DNA from: a candidate division WWE3 bacterium | Lineage (GTDB): Bacteria > Patescibacteriota > WWE3 > UBA101185 > UBA10185 | Direction of reading: 5' to 3' | Assembly (NCBI GenBank): GCA_052035175.1 | Contig: JBPOHV010000001.1 | Coordinates: forward strand, 523,338-587,337 | DNA length: 64,000 nucleotides | Shown: positions 1,707 through 32,521 of the stretch, piece after piece | How the letters are laid out: each line of letters begins with the position of its first letter | Position numbering within the stretch: position 1 is the first letter of the stretch | Made by a program: the position numbers and the translations under genes | The notes under the pieces: model-generated | Database searches by the model: none | Told to the model about the DNA's origin: nothing | The model's input: only the letters and a program-made list of their open reading frames with translations

Positions 1707-4364
1707 GTGCCATATGTACTGATTTTATGGTCTTTGCTTTATATAGTCAACATGTATTCATTCTATTTAATTCGGCAATCTGCTACCATTTATACAATGG
1801 ACAATACTAGACAATTGAAACATCTTATTTACTGGATATCAGTGGGTTGCGCTGTAGAGCTATCTACATTGATGTTTAGGTTAGTCAAAGTCTTAAATGG
1901 TCAATTTGATTTTACGCTCAATTTAAGACTGCTTTTTACTCCTTTATTTGGTGATTATACTTTTATAGGCAGATTAATAGGTTTTTTTACAAGAATTGTA
2001 TTTATAATTTTTGGTTTGATCTTTGTTGGTGTTGTTTCTGTAGTAGCTTTATTATTACCTATAGTTTGGTATGTTTTACCGCTAATTTTAATAAAAGTAT
2101 TAGGGTTTTTGCTGACATTTTGTCTTTACGCAGTTATTTTCCTTATAAAGTACTTAAGTTTTAAAAATCTTCCAGCTAAAAGAATTTCTAAAGTTACTAA
2201 TCTAAGTTGTGCGCAAGCTTTTCGACCAGCGGCTTTGGACATATCAAATGGTATACAAGCCAATTATCTAAATGCTCTCGAAATGATGCATAAAAGTTCT
2301 CAAATTAAAGAATTGTTGTTATTGGCCGAATTGAGTATAGAAGATATCTTTTCAAAACTGAGAGATATGCATATTGATGTTGTAGATATACGATCAAAAG
2401 CTTATGCATACGCAACAAATAATAAGTCACGCTTTATCGAGTTAGAACATGTTTTTGTTTCATTGATATCTTGTATTCCAAATACAAATGTTTTTTTGTC
2501 TGTCTTTGGAATAAAGCTAGAAACTTTGGAAAATGCTGCTTCGTGGTTGGTCGACCAACGTGAACAATTGGCAAAAGTTTATATATGGCAGTCTGATTTT
2601 GAAATGCCTAGATCTGCCGGCTTTGGCCATGGAATGACCGGTAGAGTTACACATCACCTTGATGATATATCTGAAGATTTTACCCAAATGGCCAAAGCCG
2701 GCATGTTTAAACGAATTGTTGGTAGAGAAGATGAAATTAAAAAAGTAGCCGATCTTATGGGAGGCAAAAATATTAATATACTGCTTATGGGCGAACCTGG
2801 CAGCGGCAAAACTACTATAGTGAAAGGAATAGCGCATAAAATAGTATACGGTCTTGATTATGATACTTTGAAAAATAAGCGCATAGTAAGTGTAGAATTT
2901 AGCGGTTTATTATCCGGTGCAAAAACATCTGGTGATATTGCAGAAAAATTGCGTCTTGCTTTTGATGATATCCGCAAATCAAAAGATATTATTGTGTTTA
3001 TAGACGAAATTCATACTTTAGCGGCTGGCGTTTCAAATGACGGTTCCGGTGCTTCTAGTGTGTTTGCTATGCTTGAACCTTATCTTTCTGCAGGAGATAT
3101 TCAGTTTATTGGAGCTACCAATGTTTCAAATTATCGAAAGTTTATAGAGCCAAATGGTGCTTTTGCACGTCTTTTTGAAACTGTTGAAATACCACAATCA
3201 AGTTATCAAGACACAATAGATATTCTCAAAGTAAGCGCACACGAATATGCAGCTGAATTCAATATACATATTACATACCTTGCTCTAGAAAAGATTGTTT
3301 CGTTGAGCGAACGCCTCATTCATGAGCGTGTTTTACCAGATAAGGCCTTGGATATTTTGAATAGAAGTTGTGTTGAGGTTAGTAAAACTACAAAGTATCT
3401 AGATTCGAAAACTGTAGAAAGTGTTATAGCCGATTTTACGCACATCCCTGTAGATGCATTAGACGAAGACGAATCAAAAAAGCTTTTAGCTCTTGAAGAT
3501 GAAATGAAAAAAAGAGTAATTGGTCAAGACCATGCAATTACACAGATAGTGGCAGCTCTTAAAAGAGCCCGTTTGGGGATACGTGACGCGAATAAGCCAA
3601 TTGCAAGCTTTTTATTTGTAGGTACAACTGGCGTAGGTAAAACTGAAACAGCAAAAACTCTTAGTGAGACTTTCTTTGGTGGAGCTAATGCGATGATTCG
3701 CTTTGATATGAGCGAATATCAAACGCCAGATAGTATTAATAAACTAATAGGAAATTCTGATGGTAGCACTACAGGCATTTTGACCGATCAAGTAAGGTCC
3801 AAACCCTTTTCGTTAATATTATTAGATGAAATAGAAAAAGCCCATTCCGAAATACTTCTTACGTTTTTACAAGTTTTAGATGATGGTCGTATAACAGACT
3901 CAACTGGCAGAGTCATTGATTTTACAAATAGCATAATAATTGCAACCAGCAACACTGGTACTAGAGAAATCCAAACTGTCTTTGATAAAAACGGAACTTT
4001 TGATGAAATGCAAAATGCGGCCATGTCTAGTGTGAGAGAACATTTTGCTCCAGAGTTTTTAAATCGGTTCACAAGCATTATTGTATTCAACCCATTAAGT
4101 ATAGAAAATGTTAAAAAGATTGCTCTTTTGATGCTAAACAAGGTTAAGAAGTTGGCAGATGCAAAAAACATAACTTTAACTTTTTCAAATGACTTGTTAG
4201 ATGAAATTATAAAGCGCGGCTACAATCCTCAATGGGGTGCAAGACCTTTAGCTAGAGTTATCGAGGACACTGTCGAAACATATATAGCAGATAAACTGCT
4301 ACGCAACGAAATGAAACCCGGAGATGTCATCGAATTAACAGGGACAGTCCTAAAGAGTCCCTAA
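1707..4364 (+). CDS. clpC: ClpC/ClpB-family AAA+ chaperone ATPase (two NBDs, Clp_N repeats) with an unusual hydrophobic N-terminal extension
   Basis: 885 aa. Clp_N repeat. Walker A in NBD1 (GEPGSGKTT) and NBD2 (GTTGVGKTE). Sensor and ClpB_D2-small region. The first ~160 aa contain 2-3 predicted TM helices; the true start may be internal (M31). Confidence 0.8.
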   Translation: MPYVLILWSLLYIVNMYSFYLIRQSATIYTMDNTRQLKHLIYWISVGCAVELSTLMFRLVKVLNGQFDFTLNLRLLFTPLFGDYTFIGRLIGFFTRIVFIIFGLIFVGVVSVVALLLPIVWYVLPLILIKVLGFLLTFCLYAVIFLIKYLSFKNLPAKRISKVTNLSCAQAFRPAALDISNGIQANYLNALEMMHKSSQIKELLLLAELSIEDIFSKLRDMHIDVVDIRSKAYAYATNNKSRFIELEHVFVSLISCIPNTNVFLSVFGIKLETLENAASWLVDQREQLAKVYIWQSDFEMPRSAGFGHGMTGRVTHHLDDISEDFTQMAKAGMFKRIVGREDEIKKVADLMGGKNINILLMGEPGSGKTTIVKGIAHKIVYGLDYDTLKNKRIVSVEFSGLLSGAKTSGDIAEKLRLAFDDIRKSKDIIVFIDEIHTLAAGVSNDGSGASSVFAMLEPYLSAGDIQFIGATNVSNYRKFIEPNGAFARLFETVEIPQSSYQDTIDILKVSAHEYAAEFNIHITYLALEKIVSLSERLIHERVLPDKALDILNRSCVEVSKTTKYLDSKTVESVIADFTHIPVDALDEDESKKLLALEDEMKKRVIGQDHAITQIVAALKRARLGIRDANKPIASFLFVGTTGVGKTETAKTLSETFFGGANAMIRFDMSEYQTPDSINKLIGNSDGSTTGILTDQVRSKPFSLILLDEIEKAHSEILLTFLQVLDDGRITDSTGRVIDFTNSIIIATSNTGTREIQTVFDKNGTFDEMQNAAMSSVREHFAPEFLNRFTSIIVFNPLSIENVKKIALLMLNKVKKLADAKNITLTFSNDLLDEIIKRGYNPQWGARPLARVIEDTVETYIADKLLRNEMKPGDVIELTGTVLKSP

Positions 4365-4545
4365 CCCAACGCTTTTCCTTTAGTAGAAGGACTTCGTTTT
4401 GTTGTATTACCAAACTATGTACCTGAGGACACTTGTTTGCACTTGGTTTAGTTTATTCTAAAAGCTTTTTTCGAAGGACAGTCCTCAAATTCCAACATTT
4501 TCATGGATAACCATTGTACCTAGAGGGTCCGTTTAGGACTGTCCC
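4341..4545. repeat. Repeat family A copies at the clpC–dinB junction (4341-4362, 4476-4484, 4525-4545)
   Basis: GGGACAGTCCTAAAGAGTCCC overlaps the clpC stop. AAGGACAGTCCTCAAA. GGGTCCGTTTAGGACTGTCCC. The core GGAC(A/T)GTCC is palindromic. Confidence 0.6.
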
Positions 4546-23926: not shown

Positions 23927-24001
23927 GGGGGTGTAGCTCAGTGGTAGAGCAGCGGCCTCTTAAGCCGCGTGTCGAGGGTCCGATCCCCTCCACCCTCACC
24001 A
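23927..24001 (+). tRNA. tRNA-Lys (anticodon CTT), CCA encoded; its 3' end serves as an integration site
   Basis: Acceptor gggggtg/caccctc (one G·U pair). D-arm gctcagtggtagagc. Anticodon stem gcggc/gccgc with loop ctcttaa. T-arm gaggg-tccgatc-ccctc. A -10 tataat lies at 23907-23912. Confidence 0.85.
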
Positions 24002-24018
24002 TTTAAACAAATTATTCC
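23982..24018 (+). repeat. Direct repeat DR-L (attL-like): tRNA-Lys 3' end plus 17-nt flank
   Basis: The 37-mer gatcccctccaccctcaccatttaaacaaattattcc recurs at 29658-29694 with 35 of 37 identical. Its first 20 nt also recur at 24130-24149. Confidence 0.7.
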
Positions 24019-24039: not shown

Positions 24040-25446
24040 TTAAGTTATAGGTAAGGGATCGGATGCCGGACCCCGCTTAGCGGGGGAGGCGGGATCGACG
24101 GGCGAGCTAGCAAGCGAGAACCGGTGATCGATCCCCTCCACCCTCACCAATAGATGAGATGCGTTGTCCACGCCACCCTGCTTAAAGCGGAACAGCGTGC
24201 TTAAAGTTGGTGTTTTAAATCCCGGATATTGATAATAGAGGTTTTCAGGAAAAATAATCTTTTGTAGTTCTGTTTTTCTTTCGAACGACAGCTTTTCCCA
24301 CAGAGTTCTAGGATTTTGGTACAACCGAGAAATCTCATACTCAAATTTCGCATTTTCAAACTTTAAATTTTCGTTTTTATTTAATTTTAGATATTTACCC
24401 TTCGTGAGAAACAAAAGCGCGTTTACGGAGCTCCTAAGCGGTCTGATTTCATCTAGTAGTGACTTAAACTCAGACTCAAGAACATCTTTATGAACAGTTT
24501 TTCCTTTAGTTATGGGGTAATAGTATGGATAATGTTTTGTCTTGCCCTTGCACCAGGAACCAGTGAAGCTAGTATTAGATATTGCACACTTAACTAAAAC
24601 TCTTAATGGAAAGTCATCTTTTCTATAACTTTTGGGTTTACCAAGGGGTTTCGATGCCGCAAGTTTTTGTAATTTATCCCACTCATGGTCAGTAAACATA
24701 GCATCATGTTTTCCTTCGTAGATGTTTTCAGTCTTCTTAAATTTAATTACACCCTTGTAAAAGGGATTTCTAATAAACTTACCTACAAAATTGGAGCCTA
24801 CTTTTTTCCCACTTTTGGTTTTTATGCCACTTTCATTTAAATGTTTAGCAATTTCTTGAAAAGAGTAACTGCCTGTCAAATATAGATGGCCAGCATCCTT
24901 TAGTATCGAAAAATTTGGTTCATCTCTTATCGGCACCCTATGATCTTGACCTATATGCTCTAATCTATATCCAATTGGAGGCACGCTTACCGGATAACCT
25001 GCTTGAACGCGCTTTTTTATACCGTCACGGGCCCGCTCAGCTCTAATTGCATTATCTAGTTTGGCTTGGGCAGCAATTAACGTTTCAATAAACTCCCCCA
25101 TAGGTGTATTATCCGTAAACTCTGTAGCTGACTTAATAACTACGCCATAATCTTGTAATCGTCGTTTTATGTCTAAATAATCAATTGTGTTGCGTGATAG
25201 CCGATCTAGTCTGTACACAATCAAGTGTGTTATTTTACCTTTAGATTTTCTGCAGTACTCCAGTAGTCTTATAAGTTCTGGGCGTTCCGCAGTTGCTGCC
25301 GATTTTCCTTCATCTCGAAATATTTCAATAATTTCAAGCTCCTGTAATGCACTGTAGTTACGACAGTAATCTTCCTGATTTGATAACGAAAAATTATTTA
25401 CTTGTTCTTCACTGCTTACTCGGAGATAAGCTATAGCTTTTTTCAT
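24040..25446 (-). CDS. Large serine recombinase (resolvase/invertase catalytic domain + recombinase domain)
   Basis: 468 aa. Catalytic serine motif (AIAYLRVSSEEQ). DEGKSA, LIVYRLDRLSRN and the dimerisation helix are present. The C-terminal ~35 aa are Pro/Ser/Ala-rich and are encoded by a GC-rich segment that contains the extra att-core copy at 24130-24149. Confidence 0.8.
   Translation of the reverse strand: MKKAIAYLRVSSEEQVNNFSLSNQEDYCRNYSALQELEIIEIFRDEGKSAATAERPELIRLLEYCRKSKGKITHLIVYRLDRLSRNTIDYLDIKRRLQDYGVVIKSATEFTDNTPMGEFIETLIAAQAKLDNAIRAERARDGIKKRVQAGYPVSVPPIGYRLEHIGQDHRVPIRDEPNFSILKDAGHLYLTGSYSFQEIAKHLNESGIKTKSGKKVGSNFVGKFIRNPFYKGVIKFKKTENIYEGKHDAMFTDHEWDKLQKLAASKPLGKPKSYRKDDFPLRVLVKCAISNTSFTGSWCKGKTKHYPYYYPITKGKTVHKDVLESEFKSLLDEIRPLRSSVNALLFLTKGKYLKLNKNENLKFENAKFEYEISRLYQNPRTLWEKLSFERKTELQKIIFPENLYYQYPGFKTPTLSTLFRFKQGGVDNASHLLVRVEGIDHRFSLASSPVDPASPAKRGPASDPLPIT
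24130..24149 (+). repeat. Third copy of the 20-nt tRNA-Lys 3' end (gatcccctccaccctcacca) inside the recombinase C-terminal coding region
   Basis: Exact 20-nt match to 23982-24001. It is not part of a foldable tRNA. Confidence 0.6.
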
Positions 25447-26336: not shown

Positions 26337-27485
26337 ATGTTGGACACAAATAACTATAGAAAATCTGACAAATGGTTAAGGCTAAGGTTATTAAATAGTA
26401 ACCTTGTAAGCCTTACGACTAACACCGATATTGAGGCAGAGTACTGGGGAGTTATCGAGTATATATCTGAAATAGAAGAGGCAGGAGTTAACTTCTTAAT
26501 TAGTAGAGGATACAATCGCAAAGATGCTAAACAGAACTATAAAGTTTTAAACTCCTACGTAAGACAAGCAAAAAATTATTACCTTACCGCGAAGAGCTTG
26601 CAGTACAGGTCAGCCCCTTTGATGTACTATTACTCCTTTCTTAATCTAGCAAAAGCATTTCTGTTAGTTAACGACATACACTATAAAGAAGTAAAGATTA
26701 AACACGGTCTCATTTATAAATACCCCGGAAAGCGCGATATCAATAAACAAAATGTGATTTCCGCAGACTCAGCCAATGAAGTCTTTCCTAGACTATATAA
26801 ATTATGGTTCGGACAACCACTAGAGTTGAAATCGTTTAGTATCCTTACTTTACTGGGCTACTGTAGCGAGATAGCATACCAGTATGAAAAGGCGAAACTT
26901 GGAAATAGAAGAGTAGATCCAGCACTATATGTAGGCGTTTCAGACTCAAAATTAAAAACTTCTTGGGCATTGTTGGGCTTGTCTAACTTTGATGAACTAA
27001 AAAAGTATAAAAAGACTACTAAAACACTAACTAGTAATTTCTCTATAGTGTCGCCCCCTCAACATGTACTCAGAGAAATGTTTGATATGAATGCTTGGGA
27101 ACTAGCAAACTTTACTTTCTTGCAGTCCAATAAAACTCTCCCATGGTTATCCGATAATGTACCGGCACCTACAAATACACAAGTCTTTGGTGCTCTTAAA
27201 AATTTATATCAGGTAAACTATTTTTCGGGAAACTTCGACTTTTTCACAAGATTACCTTATCAACCTAACAATCAAAAGGATATGGATGAGAGCATGGCAA
27301 CCTATATAATATTATTTTTCTTATCAAATCTAGTTAGATACTGGCCTTCAGTTTTGGAGTCATATTTGCTGGCTAGGGATACATGGTTAATTGAAGGCTT
27401 TATACGGTCATGCCCACATACATTACTACGAGCATTTATTTCGAGGATTGTAAATGAGGATGTGGTAATAACTTCAAAAGACTAA
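26337..27485 (+). CDS. Hypothetical protein (element cargo)
   Basis: 382-aa ORF with no confidently recognisable domain. Confidence 0.45.
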   Translation: MLDTNNYRKSDKWLRLRLLNSNLVSLTTNTDIEAEYWGVIEYISEIEEAGVNFLISRGYNRKDAKQNYKVLNSYVRQAKNYYLTAKSLQYRSAPLMYYYSFLNLAKAFLLVNDIHYKEVKIKHGLIYKYPGKRDINKQNVISADSANEVFPRLYKLWFGQPLELKSFSILTLLGYCSEIAYQYEKAKLGNRRVDPALYVGVSDSKLKTSWALLGLSNFDELKKYKKTTKTLTSNFSIVSPPQHVLREMFDMNAWELANFTFLQSNKTLPWLSDNVPAPTNTQVFGALKNLYQVNYFSGNFDFFTRLPYQPNNQKDMDESMATYIILFFLSNLVRYWPSVLESYLLARDTWLIEGFIRSCPHTLLRAFISRIVNEDVVITSKD

Positions 27486-27491
27486 AAGGGA

Positions 27492-28526
27492 CTAAACCAT
27501 AAAAGTATCCCGTATAGCCGTAAACTCTGAAACCGCTTTGAAGTAGCTCTCTAATTGCATGTAACTCCTAAACCGAAAGTTTTCTTTATTTTTATAATAC
27601 GGATCTGTATTTATAAACTTCTCATATAGGTGGAAGTCCTTATTGGAAGCTATGATAAAGAGTTTTGTAGATAGCGGGCTTAGTTGACACAAGCGCTGCA
27701 TACCGCTTAATATTTTAGTGCTATGCTCAACCTCAAAGGCTGCCACAGGGACTTCGTCTCTTAACCAAATGACGTCAATTTGATTTACTAGTTTTAATAT
27801 ATCCTCACCTAGAAATCTTTTGGGCACTTCCCGTAACGAGATGTAGTCTAGTAATTTTTCTCCAAAAGCTTCTACGCTTTTATCCGGACAATATGTATCA
27901 AAGCCAAGCAGTTTACCTATTTTTAACAATAACAATTGGGCTTCAGCATGGGCACTGATATGATTTTCTTCTTCCAAGTCGCTTTCTGCAGCAGAAGTAT
28001 CAGACGAGTAATGATGCGCAAACGAGTCTAAATCACCAAATTTAGACAAAATCGCCGCAAGTCCTTGCTCGTTTATAGGCATAAAACCTTGGACAATCAT
28101 ATTTCTGCTGTATCCAGCAAAATCCGCAATATCTGTGATTGGTATATAAACAGGCTTGAGGTCGTTTAAAAAGAAAATACAAGTCCAGGGCTCTTCACCT
28201 TTCTTAGGGGGCCATAATGACACGCCCAAATCAGCACTATGTTGCTTAAAAAGCAATTTACCCGCATAGACAAGTTTTCCTTCTCGTTCTTTACCTTCTC
28301 TTCCCTTATAAAATAGAACTAAGTCTCCAGGTTCCAACTTTTCCCAGGAGCTTTTTTTAGAGTCTTTTGTACCCCACGCAAAAATTTTAGCCTCTTTTGA
28401 AAGAAGATCCTTACCCTCTCTAGTCAGATGGGGCTCGATTATAGAGTAATCGACACCGTTATCGATTGTACTTAAAAAGTTTTTATAGGAGGTTTCGTTG
28501 GATCTCGGTGCCAAAAATATGTTCAC
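27492..28526 (-). CDS. PUA-like (EVE/ASCH-type) domain protein with a possible C-terminal PD-(D/E)xK nuclease domain
   Basis: 344 aa. The N-terminal region (IFAWGT...WEKLEPGDLVLFYKG...KLVYAGKL...PVYIP) resembles the EVE GDLVLFYHS hallmark. The C-terminal segment (IDVIWLRDEVPVAAFEVEHSTK) is compatible with a restriction-endonuclease-like D...E-x-E...K core. Confidence 0.4.
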   Translation of the reverse strand: MNIFLAPRSNETSYKNFLSTIDNGVDYSIIEPHLTREGKDLLSKEAKIFAWGTKDSKKSSWEKLEPGDLVLFYKGREGKEREGKLVYAGKLLFKQHSADLGVSLWPPKKGEEPWTCIFFLNDLKPVYIPITDIADFAGYSRNMIVQGFMPINEQGLAAILSKFGDLDSFAHHYSSDTSAAESDLEEENHISAHAEAQLLLLKIGKLLGFDTYCPDKSVEAFGEKLLDYISLREVPKRFLGEDILKLVNQIDVIWLRDEVPVAAFEVEHSTKILSGMQRLCQLSPLSTKLFIIASNKDFHLYEKFINTDPYYKNKENFRFRSYMQLESYFKAVSEFTAIRDTFMV

Positions 28527-28688: not shown

Positions 28689-29558
28689 ATGGGAAAGCTA
28701 ACCCCTTTAAGTACAGAAGATCAAAAAATGATAGAGAGTCTTGCGGAGTTTGTCGATGATGTCAAAAACAACTTATGTAGTAAAACAATCTACATAAATG
28801 CACTTAAGCCCAAACAATTTTTTATACTTTCTATGTATGCGGCAGTAAATAGCTATACCGAAGCTATACACGACTTATGCAAGTTAAGACGCCCTGAAGC
28901 AGCCATTGTAATACTCAGGTCCATAACAGAAGCTTGGATTAACTCAGTGTATATCTTAAGTTCCACAAATGACCGGGCACTACATCATTATGCTCTGGAA
29001 GGATCGTATAATAAGAAGTCTCTAGTACAACAATTTAGGGAGTTTTACGAGAAATATCCAAAACTTAGAACAGCTGTTCTAACGGATGAAGCCTTAATGA
29101 AAATGGAGGCTATCGCAATGCAAGAACTGCAAAATTATAAAGTAAAAATTAATATAGATTATGCAAACAAGAACGAGTTTAAAGATGTATGGGGCGACTT
29201 GTATAAAAGATCTGTTTGGTCTGACACCCGCTTGAAAAAACGCCAGAAAGATAAAGCCGGAGGTATAGAACATACTTATATGCTTGTATATAGATATTTG
29301 TCTGACTATACCCATTTATCTGTAACTGGTTTGGAGCATTTTTGGACAAAGGATACACATGGTAGTCGTTACCTTACACTGGACAAAAACCCGGAAAAAT
29401 TAGATATGATACTCGCCACAAATTACAGTTTATACCTCTACTTTGCAGCAAAACTGAAGCAATATAATCTGATTGATAGTTCTTTGTCTAAATACACAAA
29501 TTTCTTCGATAAAAACATTTTGAAGAAAAACAAACAAACAGCGCCTGATATTACATAA
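28689..29558 (+). CDS. Hypothetical protein (element cargo); possible HEPN-like Rx6H motif near the C-terminus
   Basis: 289-aa ORF. RYLSDYTH fits the Rx4-6H pattern. Otherwise there are no motifs. Confidence 0.4.
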   Translation: MGKLTPLSTEDQKMIESLAEFVDDVKNNLCSKTIYINALKPKQFFILSMYAAVNSYTEAIHDLCKLRRPEAAIVILRSITEAWINSVYILSSTNDRALHHYALEGSYNKKSLVQQFREFYEKYPKLRTAVLTDEALMKMEAIAMQELQNYKVKINIDYANKNEFKDVWGDLYKRSVWSDTRLKKRQKDKAGGIEHTYMLVYRYLSDYTHLSVTGLEHFWTKDTHGSRYLTLDKNPEKLDMILATNYSLYLYFAAKLKQYNLIDSSLSKYTNFFDKNILKKNKQTAPDIT

Positions 29559-29624: not shown

Positions 29625-29897
29625 GCTGTCGAAATCACCTCTACCCGAGAGAGCTTCGATCCCCACCGCCCTCACCATTTAAACAAATTATTCCATGTAC
29701 CCCGCATAAAGGCTGGGCAAAAAACCACAACATGGAGACTATTTGACGACAAAGATTTAAAAGTAAACGATGAAATTGAACTCATAAGCCGACCAGACCT
29801 TAAAACATTCGCAGTTGCAAAAATATTGGAAATTACTGAAAAACCAGAAAATACTTTGGTAAAAGTACTAAAGTTTAAAATATCAAAATTTCTATAA
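29625..29897 (+). pseudogene. ASCH/PUA-like ORF with no start codon, reading through DR-R (possible gene remnant or non-canonical start)
   Basis: Open frame ...IKAGQKTTTWRLFDDKDLKVNDEIELISRPDLKTFAVAKILEI...KFL*. The G-x-K-T-x-E-x-R...V-x-D-x-I pattern resembles the ASCH N-terminus. There is no ATG, GTG or TTG in frame after the upstream stop. Confidence 0.3.
29658..29694 (+). repeat. Direct repeat DR-R (attR-like): degenerate tRNA-Lys 3' end plus the identical 17-nt flank
   Basis: gatccccaccgccctcaccatttaaacaaattattcc differs at 2 of 37 positions from DR-L. The sequence upstream of it does not fold as a tRNA. Confidence 0.7.
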
Positions 29898-31252: not shown

Positions 31253-31338
31253 GCCAGAGTGGTGAAATGGTATACACGCTGTCTTCAGGTGGCAGTCTCC
31301 GCAAGGGGGTAAGGGTTCAAGTCCCTTCTCTGGCACCA
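31253..31338 (+). tRNA. tRNA-Leu (anticodon CAG), type II, CCA encoded
   Basis: Acceptor gccagag/ctctggc. Anticodon stem ctgtc/ggcag with loop ttcaggt. Long variable arm. T-arm aaggg-ttcaagt-ccctt. Confidence 0.85.
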
Positions 31339-31397
31339 TAGTGCAATATAAGATCAACCCTTTTGTAAGCTTAGTAACCTTAAACCCTCTAATTTTA

Positions 31398-31406
31398 TGC
31401 TAAAAT
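31398..31406 (+). promoter_or_regulatory. Extended -10 element (TGcTAAAAT) upstream of tRNA-Leu(GAG)
   Basis: TGn + TAAAAT lies 11 nt upstream of the tRNA 5' end. Confidence 0.35.
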
Positions 31407-31416
31407 ACTTTCGTAT

Positions 31417-31502
31417 GGGCGAGTGGTGAAATGGTATACACGCAACCTTGAGGTGGTTGTCCTCGAAAGGGGGTGGAGGTTCAAGTCCTCTCTCGCCCAC
31501 CA
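31417..31502 (+). tRNA. tRNA-Leu (anticodon GAG), type II, CCA encoded
   Basis: Acceptor gggcgag/ctcgccc. Anticodon stem caacc/ggttg with loop ttgaggt. Long variable arm. Confidence 0.85.
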
Positions 31503-31508
31503 AAAGAC

Positions 31509-31531
31509 AGGACCTGGTCAGACCAGGTCTC
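31509..31531. repeat. Repeat family B palindrome AGGACCTGGTCAGACCAGGTCTC
   Basis: Near-identical to 14462-14484. Lies between tRNA-Leu(GAG) and tRNA-Gly together with further processing-type hairpins (cgcgagag...ctctcgc). Confidence 0.6.
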
Positions 31532-31621
31532 ATGATAAAATTAGTTAGTTCGCGAGATACAACTAGGTTGTTCTTTTCGCGAGAGGAAGCAAAGCTTGCT
31601 CTCGCACTCGCTAACGCTCGT

Positions 31622-31696
31622 GCGAGAGTAGTTCAGTGGTAGAACGCTTCCTTGCCAAGGAAGAGGTCGCGGGTTCGATCCCCGTCTCTCGCTCCA
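31622..31696 (+). tRNA. tRNA-Gly (anticodon GCC), CCA encoded
   Basis: Acceptor gcgagag/ctctcgc. Anticodon stem cttcc/ggaag with loop ttgccaa. T-loop ttcgatc. Confidence 0.85.
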
Positions 31697-31699
31697 TAT

Positions 31700-32521
31700 A
31701 TGCACAAAGCATTTGAAACAACAGCACAAAAAGTCCAAGACACAATCGACCAAGTCTTTTTTTATAAAATGGGATATGAAGATGTAGGCTCGGCAATGGG
31801 TGATATTTTTGCACACGATGGTATCCACAAAGGCGCAGCTGTCAAAGCCTGTTTGTCTTTAATATATCAACTACTACCAGATAAACAGAAAGATTTAATA
31901 ACTGCTGAGTATACAAAAAACTTCCCTTTAGCGATTCAAAACAGCAATCTTGAGGCAATAGGTAGCGGTGGCGCCAATACTGTATTTCGAAATAGTAATC
32001 TGCCAGAAGCATATATTTTTTGTGTAAATAGAAATAATTGTAACTCTACTAAAGAAGCCTTTGAAGAAGCACAAACTATAAAAAACGATTATGCGCAAAT
32101 AAAAGAAATCTATGCAGAACTACCAGACCTTATTCCGTCAGAAGACTACTTCTTGGGAGAAAACAAAAAGAGACAACCGCTGGTCATGTCCATCAGAAGG
32201 TTTGTAGATGGAGATATAAAAGATATATTTACAGATTATACACAAGTAGAGTTAAAAGCACTGCTGTCAGAAAATCCTACGCTTGCACAGCAATTAAACA
32301 AATTTGTTGAAATAACCACAAGGAATAACGCTTTCTTTATACAAAACGAAGTAGATATTATTGGCAAGAAAAACTTAAGTATCGTTACAAATGGGAACAA
32401 TGCTCCAAATTTAGTTTTTTTGGATCCACATACCGTTGCAGAAAGACATCGAAATGACCAACATAAAGAAATTATTACACAAAGACTAGAATACCTAGAA
32501 AATATTATCAAACAGAGCTAG
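31700..32521 (+). CDS. Hypothetical protein
   Basis: ORF 31652-32521 with the start moved to the first ATG after tRNA-Gly (MHKAFETTAQ...). No recognisable motifs. Confidence 0.45.
   Translation: MHKAFETTAQKVQDTIDQVFFYKMGYEDVGSAMGDIFAHDGIHKGAAVKACLSLIYQLLPDKQKDLITAEYTKNFPLAIQNSNLEAIGSGGANTVFRNSNLPEAYIFCVNRNNCNSTKEAFEEAQTIKNDYAQIKEIYAELPDLIPSEDYFLGENKKRQPLVMSIRRFVDGDIKDIFTDYTQVELKALLSENPTLAQQLNKFVEITTRNNAFFIQNEVDIIGKKNLSIVTNGNNAPNLVFLDPHTVAERHRNDQHKEIITQRLEYLENIIKQS

Follow-up and report, generated by a model that had tools for sequence, protein, structure and literature searches.

Fusions of modified-base readers of the PUA superfamily to nucleases form an established class (PMC6765204, PMC7897488). 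MspJI and AspBHI combine an SRA-like domain with a PD-(D/E)xK nuclease, which in MspJI is Mrr-like, VcaM4I and TspA15I join a canonical EVE domain to an HNH nuclease, and modified cytosine is what these characterised enzymes recognise. Thermococcus gammatolerans McrB (TgMcrB) has an N-terminal domain described as a YTH fold that targets N6-methyladenine (6mA) in DNA (PMC7680126; PMC7544203); in that system the reader is coupled to a GTP-driven AAA+ motor, and the nuclease, McrC, is a separate protein. Fusions of YTH-like domains to PD-(D/E)xK nucleases have been noted bioinformatically by Bell et al. in 2020, who described them as rare and mostly archaeal and left the nuclease family unnamed (PMC7641849), and a paper from 2024 lists YTH-nucleoside triphosphatase (YTH-NTPase) and YTH-HNH enzymes as future work (PMC11037411). 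Cleavage outside the recognised sequence is known from R.NmeDI, a type II enzyme of Neisseria meningitidis, which cuts 12/7 nt outside RCCGGY on both sides (PMC2095814). In the literature, no paper was found that characterises an enzyme joining a YTH-like reader to a cleavage domain of the R.NmeDI type (NmeDI_C). Here we describe a gene for a protein of this predicted architecture, located on the minus strand of a 64,000-nt stretch (64 kb, hereafter the window) of contig JBPOHV010000001.1 from a candidate division WWE3 bacterium. In our judgement the gene is cargo of a small integrative island, and its product is probably a stand-alone restriction endonuclease of the modification-dependent kind (type IV). 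The gene and the parts of its product are the following.

27492..28526, minus strand: reader-nuclease gene, complete, 344 codons plus stop, GTG start (from the list of open reading frames, 142 homologues and a structure model)
28008..28526, minus strand: predicted modified-base reader domain of the PUA superfamily, YTH-like/EVE-like, residues 1-173, with conserved aromatic residues
27963..28007, minus strand: interdomain linker, acidic, of low model confidence, residues 174-188
27495..27962, minus strand: NmeDI_C-type PD-(D/E)xK nuclease domain, residues 189-344
27726..27776, minus strand: predicted metal-binding catalytic core, codons D251-E267 (IDVIW ... FEVE), from conservation in 110 family members

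The open reading frame (ORF) had been pointed out in an initial annotation made from the sequence, and its position, minus-strand orientation, GTG start and length of 344 aa are confirmed. It is a real, conserved gene, and a chance ORF is excluded: a protein search returned 142 homologues at E<=1e-3, about 85 of them full-length and 48-84% identical to the window protein, mostly from groundwater or Patescibacteria-type metagenomes. The GTG start is supported because homologues open with the same M-x-IFLAPRSNETS as the window protein. The same metagenome sample also yielded a paralogue with 84% identity, assembled on a contig of its own (17.8 kb), and the search index places both proteins on one 925 kb contig; a locus search with the single window protein gave five loci in GTDB genomes. 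The AlphaFold2 (AF2) model computed on the homologue alignment has a mean predicted local distance difference test score (pLDDT) of 87.7 and two well-defined domains, and the linker between them, variable among homologues, has a pLDDT of 54-67, with residues 177-179 below 50.

The N-terminal domain had been called a PUA/EVE-like reader on account of its EVE/PUA hallmark, and the motifs concerned, GDLVLFYKG (residues 67-75), YAGKL (87-91) and PVYIP (125-129), are indeed present inside a domain that is conserved across 71 sequences. Within this alignment Y73 is invariant (71/71), D68 occurs in 70/71 and P129 in 68/71 sequences, and the aromatic residues W51, W61, Y73, W105, W114 and F148 are each found in at least 64 of the 71, irrespective of the fusion partner. 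A single-sequence search of the PDB gave the TgMcrB N-terminal domain as its sole match (6P0F/6P0G, full-length 6UT5; E 0.004), and a profile of 77 homologues matched the same structure with E 1.5e-4, the whole domain being covered. Structure comparison agreed with this result, since 6P0G was also the top Foldseek match in the PDB (E 1e-6, target template modelling (TM) score 0.70), followed by the 5-methylcytosine (5mC)-binding EVE protein THYN1, the EVE proteins PH1033 and MJECL36, and then YTH domains; the modelled domain has the pseudo-barrel PUA-like fold. The Pfam-A scan found no match of the N-terminal domain to Pfam EVE (PF01878) or YTH (PF04146) at E<=1, and the NCBIfam model PRK00809, which we take to be of an EVE-type family, matched weakly, with 16.5 bits against a cut-off of 139. 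The domain is filed at superfamily level (PUA/EVE/YTH) as TgMcrB-N-like, and it resembles the YTH-like McrB reader more closely than it does a canonical EVE domain; the superfamily of the earlier assignment is upheld by profile and Foldseek.

For residues 1-173, sequence and structure searches alike rank TgMcrB first, and the resemblance extends to individual positions. Both domains have W51 and a GD-x-V-L-F-Y motif in common, and in the profile alignment W51, Y73 and W105 align with identical TgMcrB residues, W61 standing opposite a tyrosine. To judge by their conservation, the near-invariant aromatics resemble an aromatic cage that would hold a flipped modified base. The window protein differs from TgMcrB in that its reader is fused straight to the nuclease, without an NTPase. 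Among viral proteins, the matches of a BFVD structure search were all unnamed or weak; a PHROG family matches the reader domain with E 9e-21.

For the C-terminal domain the earlier call of a PD-(D/E)xK nuclease holds. Its AF2 model has the alpha-beta-beta-beta-alpha-beta order typical of these nucleases, every structural match obtained for it is a PD-(D/E)xK nuclease, the type IIS cleavage modules of FokI and BspD6I among them, and the nearest matches are restriction endonucleases and nicking enzymes. Pfam NmeDI_C (PF27126) is a precomputed annotation on the identical protein P0001 and on about 100 homologues. A Pfam-A scan of the whole protein returned no family at E<=1, which is not evidence against the domain because PF27126 is newer than the Pfam copy scanned. 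The PADLOC model REase_II, whose 351 positions equal the length of R.NmeDI, matches residues 192-319 (E 5.7e-6, model positions 177-315 of 351). The NmeDI_C profile gave no match among PDB sequences, so that no solved structure of the family is detectable by sequence. Profile and structure searches on each half had been proposed as the check on the initial annotation, and they place the N-terminal domain inside the PUA superfamily and give the C-terminal domain a PD-(D/E)xK fold.

Conservation within the nuclease domain was counted over 110 diverse NmeDI_C members. D251 and W254 are each present in 110/110, H193 in 108, E265 in 107, E267 in 105 and D215 in 99, while position 278 is R or K in 109 members and position 197 is Q or E in 97. 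The window protein keeps all the family-conserved residues, including H193, Q197, D215, D251, W254, E265, E267 and R278. In the AF2 model D251 lies directly before the strand 252-256, and E265 and E267 are found at the end of the strand 259-266. The predicted active site is an acidic triad D251/E265/E267 of the D...ExE type, with E267 at the lysine position, and the conservation pattern presents R278 as the putative basic residue in place of the lysine. A D...ExE variant core is also found in BamHI. The motif had earlier been read as D(265)...E-V-E...K; its acidic part is correct, residue 265 is in fact a glutamate, the aspartate is D251 and E-V-E occupies 265-267 (FEVEH). K271 was rejected as catalytic lysine, its column being D, N or G across the family.

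Both halves of the protein recur in other combinations. When all of 1.84 billion representatives were scanned with HMMER, NmeDI_C was found in 727 representative clusters, and in the 150 matches listed the domain stands at the C-terminal end. In the sample of 110 its N-terminal partners include HARE-HTH (10), EVE (6), OGG-like (4) and SRA (1) domains, that is, mostly proposed or proven modified-base readers, and NmeDI_C can be regarded as a widely reused cleavage module behind many different readers. Besides these named partners, many of the NmeDI_C proteins (P0116-P0267) have unannotated N-terminal domains.

The reader domain, for its part, forms with 63-66% identity the N-terminus of the McrB-type GTPases P0092, P0094 and P0107 (AAA_5 plus McrB_lid), and at one of these loci (L002) a McrC homologue (PF10117) lies directly downstream of P0092, with a 4-nt overlap. 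The window protein lacks an AAA_5 domain, and no McrC gene lies next to it; it does not qualify as McrBC and has the reader domain alone in common with the McrB homologues. Elsewhere the reader is fused to HNH nucleases (P0110-P0114) or to other sequences with D...ExK-like motifs (P0097, P0098, P0103, P0115); on Bacillus, Streptomyces and haloarchaeal plasmids it is found within genes annotated as HNH endonuclease or restriction endonuclease, and in an Archaeoglobus provirus within an AAA ATPase gene. When the N-terminal domain alone was searched against a set of 5.8 billion proteins, 31 matches were obtained, mostly fragments, and no further fusion partners. By these architectures the reader is a module that moves among restriction systems. 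In the metagenomic protein P0109 its partner is a RpoA-CTD/sigma-70 region 4, and on the Bacillus plasmids H6, H10 and H12 it lies under genes whose annotation is transcriptional regulator of the helix-turn-helix type; this suggests that the domain may be used in modification-sensing regulation besides restriction.

The type IV reading is favoured because a predicted base-flipping reader shared with McrBC is fused directly to a nuclease module that recurs behind modification readers, and because the catalytic signature is fully kept, a methyltransferase is absent and the gene is carried on mobile or defence islands. Eight genomic contexts were compared, namely the window island, the paralogous island in the same sample and six from other genomes; in these eight there is no adjacent DNA methyltransferase gene and no constant neighbour. 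Serine recombinases are present in 3/8, and the defence neighbours seen in the six other contexts are SIR2 with DUF87 (HerA-like) and a type I HsdR with a SocA_Panacea gene. A crude motif scan of the window ORFs of at least 120 aa found no (D/N/S)PP(Y/F/W) methyltransferase motif. The only methyltransferase-like gene seen in the eight contexts, that of L011, lies 2.5 kb off, with five genes between, one of them for a ribosomal protein, and carries UPF0020 with only a weak N6_N4_Mtase match.

The mechanism that we infer, from nuclease activity and modification dependence to 6mA specificity, dimerisation and cutting at a distance, would run as follows. The N-terminal YTH-like/EVE-like domain would scan DNA and flip a modified base into its aromatic pocket, the ligand being most likely 6mA by analogy with the nearest solved relative. 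Binding of the modified base would tether the C-terminal NmeDI_C domain by way of a flexible, roughly 15-residue linker, and the nuclease would cut the duplex a short, probably fixed distance away, as may be supposed from R.NmeDI and from FokI-like and MspJI-like enzymes. The nuclease is probably dimeric, and D251, E265 and E267 would bind Mg2+. The host would be spared as its own DNA lacks the targeted modification, and for this reason the proposal needs no cognate methyltransferase. The initial annotation had proposed 5mC, 5-hydroxymethylcytosine (5hmC) or glucosylated targets; 6mA is held likelier, the reported ligand of the nearest relative being 6mA DNA, and provided that the type IV reading is right we would give 6mA by this analogy slightly less than an even chance. 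That the family is the first single-chain, nucleoside triphosphate (NTP)-independent, context-free restriction enzyme for 6mA in duplex DNA, acting through a YTH-type pocket and cutting at a fixed short distance, is a doubtful proposition, which we put forward tentatively.

Several points weigh against the type IV reading and its 6mA ligand. No experimental characterisation of any YTH-like single-chain nuclease was found in the literature. The identity to the TgMcrB domain is 21-23%, and because it is only that high the ligand specificity of TgMcrB is not safely transferable; EVE domains that read 5mC or 5hmC (THYN1, VcaM4I) are the next-best matches to the N-terminal domain. It has been pointed out by Bell et al. 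that YTH-like domains are hard to distinguish from EVE (PMC7641849), and in the TgMcrB-DNA complex as deposited the pocket is occupied by an unmodified adenine, the base assignments of that complex having been questioned (PMC7544203). In addition, the AF2 model has a predicted TM score (pTM) of 0.53 and so gives no prediction of how the two domains are oriented to each other.

The same low identity to the 6mA-reading relative, together with the 5mC/5hmC EVE readers among the next-best matches, makes a reader for modified cytosine (5mC, 5hmC, glucosyl-5hmC or N4-methylcytosine) a serious alternative, in which architecture and mechanism would remain as proposed and only the ligand would change; since the nearest solved relative of the reader prefers 6mA DNA, we rate this alternative as possible, though on the unlikely side. 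A larger departure would be an endonuclease of a sequence-specific type II (NmeDI-like) system, with its methyltransferase encoded elsewhere and an N-terminal domain that reads sequence. The C-terminal domain family takes its name from the genuine type II enzyme R.NmeDI, whose methyltransferase gene is adjacent and which offers, along with a homologous C-terminal cleavage domain, the precedent for cutting outside the recognised site (PMC2095814), and the matching PADLOC model bears the label 'Type II restriction enzyme'. The homology is, however, confined to the cleavage domain (residues 192-319); R.NmeDI recognises unmodified sequence through another N-terminal part, to which no similarity was detected in the window protein, and has a cognate methyltransferase, whereas the N-terminal domain described here has the base-flipping reader fold that McrB also uses. 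With an adjacent methyltransferase in 0/8 contexts, the L011 gene at its distance and the empty motif scan of the window, a type II system is very improbable.

YTH domains of eukaryotes read m6A in RNA, and the YTH-like domains of CoCoNuT McrBC systems have been predicted to bind RNA (PMC11090510). It could be argued on these grounds that the protein targets modified RNA, or that it is a sensor or regulator, for instance a nuclease for abortive infection or addiction, encoded by the island and set off by methylated nucleotides or RNA; the fusion in P0109 and the Bacillus plasmid regulator genes point the same way, and a PUA-domain defence protein sensing free m6-dAMP has been reported (PMC12871103). 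The TgMcrB domain, on the other hand, has little affinity for RNA (PMC7544203), the fusion partners of the reader are overwhelmingly DNA nucleases or McrB motors, and the nearest structures of the C-terminal domain belong to enzymes that cut or nick DNA, namely restriction endonucleases and nicking enzymes, so that this explanation seems improbable. The damaged look of the island recombinase C-terminus might lead one to regard the nuclease gene as a decayed, inactive remnant that has no current function. Against this stand an intact reading frame in which every family-conserved residue is kept, the 84%-identical paralogue in the other island recovered from this sample and the high conservation across homologues, and a remnant is scarcely credible.

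Under the favoured type IV reading the find itself is ordinary, a reader-nuclease fusion being the standard type IV design and already recognised, and the window protein is an uncharacterised addition to this known class. It is distinguished from MspJI/AspBHI and from VcaM4I/TspA15I by the combination of a YTH-like reader with NmeDI_C, and from the fusions noted by Bell et al. by a family drawn mainly from bacterial candidate-phyla metagenomes and by a nuclease that can be named. The YTH-like reader family is well populated, mainly in candidate-phyla bacteria, and no characterised enzyme with this reader subfamily was found in the literature. To our knowledge, the known 6mA-dependent enzymes (DpnI, winged-helix fusions) require sequence context. 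If the proposal is true, a context-free 6mA-dependent cutter would be the 6mA counterpart of MspJI and an aid to the epigenomic mapping of 6mA sites.

That the gene lies in a mobile island had also been claimed, and this is borne out by a 38-nt direct repeat that includes the 3' end of a tRNA-Lys and brackets a serine recombinase gene. The other features of the island, with both repeat copies taken from a repeat search, are listed here.

23927-24001: tRNA-Lys
23981..24018, plus strand: left 38-nt direct repeat, last 21 nt of the tRNA-Lys plus 17 nt, putative att site
24040..25446, minus strand: island serine recombinase (Pfam Resolvase E 3e-35, Recombinase E 8e-15)
26337-27485, plus strand: YaaC-like gene (PF14175, E 4e-29)
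28689-29558, plus strand: DUF5677 gene, divergent from the reader-nuclease gene
29657..29694, plus strand: right 38-nt direct repeat, 95% identical to the left copy, putative att site

The island is a 5.7 kb segment at the tRNA-Lys and contains, between the repeats, the serine recombinase gene, a 124-aa ORF, the YaaC-like gene, the reader-nuclease gene and the divergent DUF5677 gene. The YaaC-like and nuclease genes are convergent, their stop codons 6 nt apart, and the YaaC-like protein had no match in PADLOC, NCBIfam or PHROG. DUF5677 is weakly similar to AIPR_N (E 0.018) and to the PADLOC candidate PDC-S52 (E 0.025), and may be loosely linked defence cargo; a literature search on DUF5677 and YaaC found nothing relevant. 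In the second island the 84% paralogue is accompanied by a DUF5677 gene (54% identical), which lies at 3478-4383 on the minus strand of its locus (L004) and is divergent from the reader-nuclease gene as in the window, and by an unrelated serine recombinase (22% identical). A multi-gene system with the YaaC-like or DUF5677 neighbours was rejected, as neither occurs in the six contexts from other genomes and DUF5677 recurs only in the paralogous island. In Pacebacteria-type genomes (L005/L006, 9047-11987) the orthologue P0020 is followed after a 2-nt gap by a SIR2_2 and then a DUF87 (HerA-like) gene, and the two are reminiscent of SIR2-HerA, a known defence system.

The tRNA-Lys 3' end/att repeat occurs once more at 24124-24166, as a degenerate third copy with 65-78% identity, and the last ~40 codons of the recombinase (24040-24166) traverse it. 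The C-terminus of the recombinase (...VRVEGIDHRF...) looks like translated tRNA-derived DNA, and neither a zinc-ribbon nor a coiled-coil domain was detected in the protein, so that the recombinase may be truncated, and the island may be immobilised. Nine tRNA genes are found in the window between 23237 and 46814, and the island lies between the tRNA-Lys and a tRNA-Leu/Leu/Gly cluster (31253-31696). The ORF at 31652-32521 overlaps the tRNA-Gly at its 5' end, and its true start is therefore probably further downstream.
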